Positions 43,838-46,603 of a DNA stretch of 64,000 bases are shown piece by piece (position 1 is the first letter of the stretch; each line of letters starts with the position of its first letter). This DNA is from Dictyostelium discoideum. Lineage: Eukaryota. The stretch covers positions 4,064,001-4,128,000 of the forward strand of contig CM000153.2 of the NCBI GenBank assembly GCA_000004695.1, read 5' to 3'. Made by a program: the position numbers and the translations under genes. The notes beneath the pieces were generated by a model that did not search any database, was not told the DNA's origin, and saw only the letters and a program-made list of their open reading frames with translations.

Positions 43838-46603
43838 ATGATATTAGGATCAACATTAGCTGAAAAGAATTCATCAAAATTTAATCAATTAAGAAAATTA
43901 AAGAGAAAGATGTCACAAATTTCATCAACTGTTAATACAATGTTTGATGAATCACAAAGTGTATTAGCACAAGCTTATGAATCATTGGAATTGAATTCAG
44001 GTATTAGAGAGCGCTGTAAAAAGACATTAAAAGAGCTATTGGATACAACACCAGAATCATCATATGCTCTATTATTCGTTGGTACTAAACTTGCTGCTCA
44101 TAATGTAAAACCAAAAGAAAAACATCTTTTAAACCATTTCGATATATTCTTATTATCAATTTATATTCAAATTCAATTATACCCAAGAGCTATTGAAAAA
44201 GTTAAAGTTAAATCACAATCAAATGAAGAAGAACAACAACAACCTCAATCAACTTCCTCACCAATAACTCAAGAAATTTCTTCATTTGAAGAAATCCCTT
44301 CAATGGAATTAAATTATAATAATAATTGTAATGATAATGATAATAAAAATATTAATAATAATAATAATAATAATAGTAATAATAGTAGTAATAATAATAG
44401 TAATATCAATAGTAATAGTAGTAATAATAATCATAATCATAATGGAGGCCATGGTGGTAGTGTAAGAAGAAGTAGTAGATTTGAAGGATCATTAGATAGA
44501 ACAATAGGTATTTCATCACATCAAGATGAAAATAGTCCAGAAGAGGATAATTATGAAACAGCTCCTGAAGATTTCGATGAGCCATTATACTTTTTATCAA
44601 GTCCATTTTTAGATCAATTATTAGAAGAATCAAGTACTTCTTCTAATACAACAACAATGACAACAACAACCACTACTACTACCAATACAACCACTTCCTC
44701 CACTACAGTTACTAATGCAACAAAAATAATACCATCACCAACATCATCAACAACATCAATATCTTCATCAGTATCATCAGTATCATCATTATTATCAATG
44801 CCAATTAATAGTAAAAGAAATAGACATCATAATTTATTGATTGAACAATTGAGAGAAGGATTAAAGAGTTCAACAACTGGTGATGCTGTTTCTTTATTAA
44901 ATTATTCATTATATTCAATTGGTTATTTGGATGAATATAATCATTCAACTAGAGAAATCTATACTTCAATTACAGAATCTGCAATTAGAAAATTCCAAGA
45001 GGATAATAATATACCAATGACAGGTGTTGCTGATTTTAGTACAATTCGATTAATTCTATGTAGAGTTAGAATATCCGATCCAAATATACTAAAACGTAGA
45101 TCTCTAGCATATAGTGATAATGATCTTGGTTCATTTAGAGATATCTCCCTTAAAGATAGGGATAATAGTATTGGTAAAGATTCTTCAACTTCTTCTTCTC
45201 CTTCAGCAACTAATGATCAATCTTCAACAATTAAACAATCATCAAGACGTAATAATACATCAACAAATAAAAATATAAATGATAATAGCAATAATAATAA
45301 TAGTAATAGTAATAGTAATAGTAATAGTAATAGTAATAGTAATAGTAATAGTAATAGTAATAGTAATAGTAATAGTAATAGTAATAATAACGATAATATT
45401 AATACTGATAATAAAAATGAAATTAATAATATAAATGAAAATAATAGTAATACCAACAAAGACAACAACAATAATAATAATAATAATAATGATAGTAGTA
45501 ATAATACCAATAATATAAACAACAATAGTAATAATAATAATAATAATAATAATAATAATAATAATAATAATAATAATAATAATAATAATAATAATAATAA
45601 TAATAATAATAATAATAATAATAATAATAATAATAATAATAATAATAATAATAATAATAATAATTTAAATGATGAAAATAATAATGAAAATCAATATAAT
45701 ACAGCACAATCAACATATGAACAAATTAATCTTAGACTTGGTAATGGTGTAATGACAGTTTATGCATTTTGTGGAGAAGTTAGTGAAAATATCTTTTTAA
45801 TTGTAATTAATAAGAATGCTAATAATAACAATAATAATAAGGTTAGAGATGTTAATCAAGAGAGAGAGAAATTAGAATACTCTAAACAATTGGTTCGTAA
45901 TAGTATTAGTATACAATTTGGTTCCTTTTTATTAGCAAAAGAAAAGAGTAATATTGCAATCTCAAGATTCTTTCATATACCTGGCATTGTTCATTTCCTT
46001 TTAATAGATAGAGCTAATCATCGTATAAGAGCACCTGTAATATCCCCAGATTTAATACCATTCCAAAGAAATAATAAAAATAATCCTATGAATATGAGTT
46101 TTAATTTAGGTTCTGATAGTTATAATAATAGCAACAACAACCACAACAACAACAGCTATCATTATCAAGGTAATAATGTTGGTGGTATCAATTTCGATAG
46201 TATCAATATTAATATAGATCCAAATAATGAACAATCAATTTCAGATACTCAAAATGGTATGGTTAGATTTTTAAAGAAAAAGATTTGGACAATGTACAGT
46301 TATTGCTGTCAACAGTTATGTCGTGGTAATCATTATATGATTTGGAATGATAAAGATTTTCAATACAGTTATAGACTTTGGATTGCCGATGATGAAAATA
46401 ATGAACATAAGTTGGACCATTCCGTATCATTAAGATTAAATCAAAAATCATTTTATGCTGACCTTTTAAAAAATTCTTTCCCTCATTCTTCAAAAATGAA
46501 ATGTTATGAACTATTAATCCTTTATATCGGTGTTTTACCAATCTCAATGGTTTCAAAGAATGATAAAGCATTATATCATTTATTATTTGAAATGGATGAA
46601 TAA
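43838..46603 (+). CDS. Large Asn/Ser-rich protein with a peptidoglycan-binding-like (PG_binding_1-type) domain
   Basis: GDAVSLLNYSLYSIGYLDEYNHSTREIYTSITESAIRKFQEDNNIPMTGVADFSTIRLI follows the PG_binding_1 pattern G..V..LQ..L..GY.....DG.FG..T..AV..FQ...GL...G..D..T...L; contains a pure (AAT)~43 tract; the C-terminal 350 aa are non-repetitive and unrecognised. Confidence 0.6.
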   Translation: MILGSTLAEKNSSKFNQLRKLKRKMSQISSTVNTMFDESQSVLAQAYESLELNSGIRERCKKTLKELLDTTPESSYALLFVGTKLAAHNVKPKEKHLLNHFDIFLLSIYIQIQLYPRAIEKVKVKSQSNEEEQQQPQSTSSPITQEISSFEEIPSMELNYNNNCNDNDNKNINNNNNNNSNNSSNNNSNINSNSSNNNHNHNGGHGGSVRRSSRFEGSLDRTIGISSHQDENSPEEDNYETAPEDFDEPLYFLSSPFLDQLLEESSTSSNTTTMTTTTTTTTNTTTSSTTVTNATKIIPSPTSSTTSISSSVSSVSSLLSMPINSKRNRHHNLLIEQLREGLKSSTTGDAVSLLNYSLYSIGYLDEYNHSTREIYTSITESAIRKFQEDNNIPMTGVADFSTIRLILCRVRISDPNILKRRSLAYSDNDLGSFRDISLKDRDNSIGKDSSTSSSPSATNDQSSTIKQSSRRNNTSTNKNINDNSNNNNSNSNSNSNSNSNSNSNSNSNSNSNSNSNNNDNINTDNKNEINNINENNSNTNKDNNNNNNNNNDSSNNTNNINNNSNNNNNNNNNNNNNNNNNNNNNNNNNNNNNNNNNNNNNNNNNNNNNLNDENNNENQYNTAQSTYEQINLRLGNGVMTVYAFCGEVSENIFLIVINKNANNNNNNKVRDVNQEREKLEYSKQLVRNSISIQFGSFLLAKEKSNIAISRFFHIPGIVHFLLIDRANHRIRAPVISPDLIPFQRNNKNNPMNMSFNLGSDSYNNSNNNHNNNSYHYQGNNVGGINFDSININIDPNNEQSISDTQNGMVRFLKKKIWTMYSYCCQQLCRGNHYMIWNDKDFQYSYRLWIADDENNEHKLDHSVSLRLNQKSFYADLLKNSFPHSSKMKCYELLILYIGVLPISMVSKNDKALYHLLFEMDE
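45535..45665 (+). repeat. (AAT)n coding microsatellite (~43 Asn)
   Basis: Seen directly. Confidence 0.9.

Follow-up and report, generated by a model that had tools for sequence, protein, structure and literature searches.

The PG_binding_1 domain family (PF01471) and the tri-longin protein HPS1 are each well known. HPS1 and HPS4 constitute BLOC-3, a soluble cytosolic guanine nucleotide exchange factor (GEF) for Rab32/38; in human HPS1, a "unique" four-helix bundle (4HB) located between the second and third longin domains (LD2 and LD3) stacks on LD1-α4 and LD2-β3 and thereby braces LD1 and LD2, and the loop between LD2-α2 and LD2-β3 is unresolved in the cryo-electron microscopy structure (PMC11947305). 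BLOC-3 and Rab32 govern lysosome-related organelles and, in macrophages, a bacteria-killing pathway (PMC7810368). The closest bacterial and phage PG_binding_1 domains, i.e., the N-terminal domain of SleB (6tci), SleC (9h68), phiKZ gp144 (3bkh), AP3 endolysin (5nm7), and the Streptomyces Zn DD-peptidase (1lbu), are extracytoplasmic and are fused to, or located beside, cell-wall hydrolases or transpeptidases. In eukaryotes, the matrix metalloproteinase (MMP) prodomains (proMMP-2, 1eak/1ck7; proMMP-9, 8k5v) share the fold and the Pfam family and make an intramolecular protein contact instead of contacting peptidoglycan, and the N-terminal domain of CtpB (4c2c), a bacterial intermembrane-space protein, resides in an unrelated host architecture. 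The same fold serves protein contacts in both CtpB and the MMP prodomains. Here, we describe a gene in a 64,000-nucleotide stretch of Dictyostelium discoideum DNA (GenBank assembly GCA_000004695.1, contig CM000153.2, positions 4,064,001 to 4,128,000; hereafter, the window, to which all coordinates refer), whose product is identified from its sequence as the orthologue of HPS1 and carries a PG_binding_1 domain inside LD2. By contrast with the extracytoplasmic bacterial and phage domains, the Dictyostelium domain is thus internal to what would be a cytosolic Rab GEF subunit.

The PG_binding_1 domain and its host protein

The segment at 44876–45052 on the forward strand (residues 435–493) encodes a genuine PG_binding_1 three-helix-bundle domain with one extra leading helix. 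In the full protein, the PF01471 profile is matched over positions 1–56 of 57 (E = 3.4e-9, 37.2 bits; gathering cut-off, 23 bits), and the score of the isolated 108-residue segment is higher (E = 1e-10, 42 bits). A preliminary description of this locus had proposed the domain from its residue pattern, and the call is upheld at an E-value far under the limit of 0.01, above which it would have counted as pattern similarity only. The segment additionally scores 44.9 bits against a hidden Markov model built from bacterial-type multi-repeat proteins only, and the best of 2000 shuffled sequences reached 6.1 bits; a chance pattern match was ruled out by this control and by the Pfam score. Nearly all of the family signature, G..V..L..L..GY...Y..TE.A..FQ...L..TG.AD..T (by alignment to a consensus of 590 bacterial-type repeat instances), is retained, comprising the G-x-x-V, L..L..LGY, T-E-x-A-V-x-x-FQ, L-x-x-(T/D)G, and D..T elements, with the exceptions of a Gly-to-Thr replacement after the aromatic residue and a first loop longer by 3 residues. 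In place of the D-G-(hydrophobic)2-G loop motif, the Dictyostelium domain has D-E-...-I-Y-T, the bacterial D-G-x-x-G loop being represented by a longer D-E-Y-N-H-S-T-R-E-I-Y-T loop; many bacterial repeats lack the motif as well.

The AlphaFold model of the domain alone (residues 410–515) has a mean predicted local distance difference test (pLDDT) score of 84.6 and consists of a leading helix followed by three helices, and the three-helix bundle is superposable on solved PG_binding_1 members. In the full-length model, the domain is the only long stretch in which the block pLDDT is mostly 83–92 (one block, 66). The leading helix (44804–44875, forward strand, residues ~411–434, RNRHHNLLIEQLREGLKS) corresponds to residues 2–19 of the domain-only model, where it packs with the domain and its two 10-residue blocks have a mean pLDDT of 71 and 89; it is kept in four of the six aligned orthologues. 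A sequence search of PDB chains with the 108-residue segment yielded spurious matches to kelch-like and SUS1 chains and none to a member of the PG_binding_1 family, and a profile of six dictyostelid species reached gp144, an S-layer protein, and SleC at E-values of 0.07–0.12 only. On structural comparison, which these weak sequence matches made necessary, the domain resembles the wall-binding domains of bacteria and phages more closely than it does the MMP prodomains. An MMP-like prodomain, i.e., an autoinhibitory three-helix bundle with a cysteine switch, would share the fold and the Pfam family and is nonetheless scarcely credible here: helix 3 is followed by LILCRVRISDPNILKRR, the protein has neither a PRCGxPD motif nor a Peptidase_M10 or other metalloprotease domain, Cys is present in only two of six aligned dictyostelid orthologues, and bacterial-type domains match far better.

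The window has the AT-rich composition typical of Dictyostelium (GC content, 13–33%), and the domain lies within an open reading frame (ORF) of 921 codons at 43838–46603 on the forward strand. The peptide quoted in the preliminary description (LLNYSL...TIRLI) is located in frame on this strand at 44894–45055. The gene comprises two exons on the forward strand. Exon 1 (43413–43583, residues 1–57) begins with the ATG at 43413, consists of 57 codons that encode the start of LD1, and is terminated by a GTAAGT donor at 43584; the upstream exon suspected earlier at 43413–43604 is therefore real, with its end at 43583 instead of 43604. The intron (43584–43744), read directly from the sequence, is an AT-rich, phase 0, GT...AG intron of 161 nucleotides with its AG acceptor at 43743–43744, and its removal restores both the reading frame, which resumes at 43745, and the orthologue alignment. 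Exon 2 (43745–46603) is an open frame encoding residues 58–1009 and the stop codon (46601–46603), and the C-terminus of its product (...LLFEMDE) lines up with the orthologue C-termini. The assignment of the gene to 43413–43583 plus 43745–46603 is based on the splice signals and on the gap-free alignment with five dictyostelid orthologues across the junction between FVFQY and NENIWFILVS; the exact 1009-residue product is absent from the protein collection, and the gene model relies on these two lines of evidence. With 1009 residues and poly-Asn/Ser tracts, the product fits the earlier characterization as a large Asn-rich amoebal protein.

The host protein is, on the evidence of homology, the Dictyostelium orthologue of HPS1, a subunit of BLOC-3. 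LD1 (Fuz_longin_1, PF19036; 43419–43921, forward strand, including the intron; residues 3–116) scores 29.9 bits in the full protein and 32.9 bits in an N-terminal fragment (cut-off, 26.1), and LD3 (45956–46600, forward strand, residues ~795–1009, with IPGIVHFLLIDR at residues 802–813) is matched by Fuz_longin_3 (PF19038) from residue 804 at 28.3 bits in a C-terminal fragment and 22.8 bits at full length (cut-off, 24.3). The profile of six dictyostelids matches human HPS1 (8zwc_A) with an E-value of 2.3e-25 and MON1 with one of 7.8e-4, with no match to FUZ, and in LD3 it aligns with human HPS1 residues 507–691 at 80.5 bits. The human (8zwc, PMC11947305) and Dictyostelium proteins are alike in their tri-longin composition and in an LD3 aligned over ~180 residues with an F/I-PG-L/I-VHF..DR motif. 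Furthermore, an exhaustive search for representatives with the dictyostelid profile recovered HPS1-family proteins across eukaryotes, among which 60 of the 62 scanned representatives carry Fuz_longin_3 and several are named Hermansky-Pudlak syndrome protein in their source. Pfam Fuz_longin_2 has no match in the D. discoideum protein itself, and both halves of LD2 are recognizable by other means, namely the alignment with human HPS1, the predicted strands at residues 716–745, and split Fuz_longin_2 matches in homologues. Pairing with HPS4 and exchange activity on Rab32-family GTPases would follow by homology with the human complex; the window does not contain the gene for the HPS4 partner, and our literature search found no biochemical data on a Dictyostelium HPS1–HPS4 complex or its GEF activity.

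This identity bears on the location of the domain. A hydropathy scan of the 1009-residue protein, including the upstream exon for which a signal-peptide and topology check had been proposed, detected neither a signal peptide nor a transmembrane helix; the highest 19-residue Kyte-Doolittle window (1.61) falls in the C-terminal longin helix aligned with human HPS1. Pfam detected no hydrolase domain, the remaining domains being longin domains only. The usual context of PG_binding_1, i.e., an extracytoplasmic location and/or a catalytic domain modifying the cell wall, is accordingly not found here. The preliminary description had envisaged a peptidoglycan-recognition protein for prey sensing or digestion, and a secreted or lumenal protein of this kind would be in keeping with the presence of PG_binding_1 in an organism that eats bacteria. 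Since the host is HPS1, the upstream exon encodes a longin domain, and the protein lacks a signal peptide, a transmembrane segment, and a hydrolase domain, secreted or lumenal cell-wall digestion is very unlikely, and the suggested role in prey digestion is not supported. We infer that the domain does not anchor a hydrolase to the cell wall and that the protein is not secreted.

The LD2 loop and the distribution of the domain

The PG_binding_1 domain is located in the middle of the loop between LD2-α2 and LD2-β3, with ~230 residues before it and ~220 after it. The first half of LD2, up to helix α2 (44051–44188, forward strand, residues ~160–205, SSYALLFVGTKL...DIFLLSIYIQIQLYP), aligns with human HPS1 residues ~200–246, and the second half (β3–β5, predicted strands; 45719–45808, forward strand, residues 716–745, MTVYAFCGEVSENIFLIVINK) begins ~510 residues beyond the first, with an anchor column "..LV.I.." that is kept across 62 HPS1 representatives. 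In homologues, Fuz_longin_2 correspondingly matches the first half only or is split around an insert. The flanks of the domain are mostly Asn/Ser/Thr-rich, unconserved, and predicted to be disordered, and outside LD1 and the PG_binding_1 domain the full-length AlphaFold model, built with six sequences, is poor (mean pLDDT, 39.7). In human and Dictyostelium HPS1 alike, LD2 is interrupted at the same point by a large disordered loop, and both loops contain an acidic-aromatic [FY]-x-[ST]-[AP] motif. In Dictyostelium, this motif lies in an acidic-aromatic island (44531–44629, forward strand, residues 320–352, SPEEDNYETAPEDFDEPLYFLSSPFLDQLLEE) in which 11 residues are invariant in six dictyostelids, and a related motif, [DE]n-[FY]-x-[ST]-[AP], e.g., EFYTPKASP, EFFTPE, and EYHSAPTTP, occurs in the LD2 loop of 25 of 68 HPS1 sequences, metazoan-type proteins included. 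This motif may resemble an FFAT or phospho-FFAT (VAP-binding) motif (compare EFFDAPE in OSBP and QFYSPPE in STARD3). An Asn/Ser-rich low-complexity tract (45206–45688, forward strand, residues ~545–705; pLDDT ~25–32) occupies part of the interval from the domain to the second half of LD2; it holds an (Asn-Ser)n run and ~50 consecutive Asn residues, is specific to D. discoideum, being missing in all five aligned orthologues, and, read on the complementary strand, produces long ORFs of poly-Leu and poly-Tyr that are spurious.

Human and metazoan-type HPS1 differ from the Dictyostelium protein in having the 4HB and no PG_binding_1 domain, whereas Dictyostelium HPS1 has PG_binding_1 in the LD2 loop and ~50 residues at the place of the 4HB. 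Among the HPS1 representatives, the spacing between LD2-β5 and the FPGLVHF motif falls into a short class of 33–63 residues and a long class of 139–178 residues, with three intermediates of 72–103 residues; the long class is metazoan-type and has one outlier of 361 residues. In Dictyostelium, the gap from LD2-β5 to IPGIVHF is ~50 residues (45809–45960, residues ~746–795) with one helix at residues 760–792, and all PG-bearing HPS1 proteins belong to the short class (43–52 residues). Because only 43–52 residues are available there, the dictyostelid and other PG-bearing HPS1 proteins lack the 4HB. Many other non-metazoan HPS1 proteins likewise lack it. The absence of the 4HB looks like a lineage difference and gives no ground for excluding the Dictyostelium protein from HPS1. 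It does raise an intramolecular alternative, in which the four-helix module formed by the leading helix and the bundle would pack on LD1 and LD2 and stand in for the human 4HB, which performs such stacking on LD1-α4 and LD2-β3 (PMC11947305). The restriction of PG-bearing proteins, none with a 4HB, to the short spacing class agrees with this proposal. Many short-class HPS1 proteins, however, have neither the 4HB nor the PG_binding_1 domain, some with LD2 loops of <100 residues; the very long, unconserved, low-complexity linkers are more in keeping with a freely tethered module; no docking is predicted with confidence in the full-length model; and the anticorrelation between the 4HB and PG_binding_1 is confounded by phylogeny. 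An internal brace is therefore regarded as improbable.

Six further dictyostelid orthologues were found, and each of them carries the domain (P0001–P0005 and Cavenderia P0007); they are those of Polysphondylium violaceum, Tieghemostelium lacteum, Acytostelium subglobosum, and Cavenderia fasciculata, and two EukProt entries. Across D. discoideum and P0001–P0005, 16 signature positions are invariant, and in windows spanning residues 421–480 on average 2.8 of 5 orthologue residues are identical, compared with 3.0–3.8 in LD1 and 0–1 in the flanking linker. The domain is thus conserved about as well as the longin domains, the remaining loop sequence is not alignable, and to judge from this pattern the domain is under purifying selection. 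It could alternatively be a functionless passenger, i.e., an old insertion of bacterial derivation kept by chance in a tolerant loop; this hypervariable loop accommodates large insertions, and several lineages have a degenerate domain or have lost it. In Dictyostelia, however, a neutral insert would have decayed like the flanks, which are no longer alignable, instead of keeping 16 invariant residues and longin-level conservation, and this alternative is accordingly disfavored, with only a slim chance of being correct.

Beyond Dictyostelia, the distribution was assessed in 62 HPS1-family representatives obtained from the exhaustive profile search together with 20 name look-ups, and PF01471 was found at E ≤ 0.01 in six of the 62 representatives: three uncultured eukaryotes (P0014, 47.9 bits; P0023, 26.3 bits; P0011, 25.6 bits) and Cavenderia (P0007, 26.3 bits) above the gathering cut-off of 23 bits, and Balamuthia mandrillaris (P0010, 19.9 bits) and a further uncultured eukaryote (P0028, 19.2 bits) under it. 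In all six, the domain is located between LD2-α2 and the LD3 motif. The Balamuthia protein (KAL6068015.1) carries Fuz_longin_1, 2, and 3 and the weak PG_binding_1 match under the NCBI name "hybrid polyketide synthetase," an apparent misannotation. The HPS1 of Rhizamoeba reaches 15 bits only with PF01471, nothing significant was obtained with this profile in Planoprotostelium, Mantamonas, Endostelium, Phalansterium, Anaeramoeba, Diphylleia, and Capsaspora, and none of the 25 representatives whose LD2–LD3 spacing is metazoan-type showed the domain. Relaxed local searches yielded candidate remnants in Planoprotostelium, Mantamonas, Rhizamoeba, and P0041, for which the hhalign matches are weak (E = 0.015–0.07, probability <3%); apart from the 15 bits of Rhizamoeba, Pfam gives no match in any of the four, P0041 included. 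The simplest reading of this distribution is one old insertion, no younger than the last ancestor shared by Dictyostelia and Balamuthia, after which the domain decayed or was lost in several lineages; the single origin is suggested by the shared insertion position and not by a tree, and no claim is made for an insertion older than Amoebozoa.

Candidate roles of the domain in BLOC-3

The best explanation of these findings, to which we assign a probability of about one half, is that PG_binding_1 serves as a tethered, non-catalytic binding module on the flexible loop of HPS1, which would recognize a protein or another cytosolic partner and thereby place or regulate BLOC-3. A partner of this kind is rated the most likely because the cytosol does not normally contain intact cell wall. 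Briefly, the module would capture a protein or a soluble ligand as its partner at the cytosolic face of endolysosomal or phagosomal membranes, and this capture would help to set where and when BLOC-3 activates its Rab. The mechanism would parallel that of the CtpB N-terminal domain and the MMP prodomains, in which the same fold mediates protein–protein contacts. Several observations weigh against this explanation. The near-complete signature and the closeness to wall binders fit an ancestral glycopeptide ligand at least as well as a new protein partner, and the full-length model is too poor, at the mean pLDDT given above, to tell a free module from a docked one. Furthermore, the HPS1 proteins of Endostelium, Phalansterium, and Planoprotostelium have no detectable domain, and BLOC-3 therefore does not need it.

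The retention of the signature leads to a second proposal, in which the domain would still bind peptidoglycan, i.e., muropeptides leaked or transported from phagolysosomes, or bacterial wall exposed by vacuole damage, and this binding would recruit or activate BLOC-3 and thereby switch on Rab32-family GTPases at bacteria-containing compartments. The family signature residues are largely intact, the nearest structures are those of true wall binders, and the domain is strongly conserved in the bacterivorous dictyostelids; it is additionally found in the HPS1 of other phagotrophic protists and goes undetected in the 25 representatives with metazoan-type spacing. In mammals, moreover, Rab32 and BLOC-3 form an antibacterial pathway in macrophages (PMC7810368, PMC7772198). 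Set against these points, the residues that contact peptidoglycan are poorly defined in the family, a literature search on its ligand site yielding nothing informative, so that ligand competence is unreadable from sequence; the classic D-G-(hydrophobic)2-G loop is changed, although this also holds for many bacterial repeats; several amoebozoans that feed on bacteria have a degenerate domain or none that can be detected; and the present data document no way for muropeptides to enter the cytosol of the amoeba. Peptidoglycan binding in the cytosol is on balance rather unlikely. A functional analogy, and no more than that, may be drawn with NOD1 and NOD2, which are cytosolic detectors of peptidoglycan fragments feeding endolysosomal and antibacterial responses, features that would be shared if such sensing were true; the NOD proteins are built from leucine-rich repeat (LRR) and NACHT domains and have no sequence or fold kinship to PG-bearing HPS1. 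The stronger proposition, that BLOC-3 itself is a cell-wall-fragment receptor in bacterivorous amoebae and represents an ancestral, NOD-independent link to the Rab32/BLOC-3 antibacterial pathway, is more doubtful. Of the prey sensing raised in the preliminary description, what survives is the speculation that muropeptides or escaped bacteria are sensed in the cytosol and that this sensing is coupled to Rab32-type trafficking.

Neighboring genes and implications for BLOC-3

Several other genes are found in the window. Just upstream of the HPS1 gene, an ORF at 42260–43075 on the forward strand matches Peptidase_M48 (Ste24-like, HEIGH) over profile positions 31–183 only and is probably the last exon of a multi-exon gene of the CAAX-protease type. 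Downstream, the neighboring gene, at 48361–53541 on the reverse strand, encodes a 1726-residue LRRK-like kinase of the Roco type, in which DEP, LRR, Roc, COR-A, and kinase domains are found. Between it and the HPS1 gene, an ORF of 224 residues (46771–47445, reverse strand) includes several hydrophobic stretches and matches no Pfam profile at E ≤ 1e-5. Human LRRK2 has a functional link to Rab32-family GTPases; because Dictyostelium has many Roco genes, the adjacency of the Roco and HPS1 genes is probably coincidental. Farther upstream, three tandem paralogous genes on the forward strand (14435–19912, 21057–26282, and 27463–33183) encode proteins of ~1750–1900 residues in which a subtilase (Peptidase_S8) is joined to an ABC transporter (ABC_membrane and ABC_tran), an arrangement that presumably resembles the tagB/tagC/tagD cluster of D. 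discoideum.

The locus thus appears to encode a BLOC-3 subunit with an accessory wall-binding module of bacterial type. The Cavenderia and Tieghemostelium orthologues already bear the automatic label "Peptidoglycan binding-like domain-containing protein"; in the literature on HPS1 and peptidoglycan, on PG-binding domains in Dictyostelium, and on BLOC-3 in Dictyostelium, we found nothing on this architecture, no recognition of these proteins as HPS1, and no discussion of PG_binding_1 inside a tri-longin GEF. The likely annotation is corrected in that an "uncharacterised, PG-binding-like" protein becomes Dictyostelium HPS1. Human HPS1 deficiency gives rise to Crohn's-like colitis, and cytosolic peptidoglycan sensing by HPS1, if true, could bear on this disease. 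The targeting and regulation of BLOC-3 are poorly understood, and a folded, conserved domain in the LD2 loop provides a handle on them in a genetically tractable bacterivore. If its ligand is peptidoglycan, the domain would represent a novel class of microbial sensor in the cytosol, coupled directly to a Rab GEF; if its ligand is a protein, it would represent a lineage-specific BLOC-3 adaptor and another reuse of the fold away from the cell wall.

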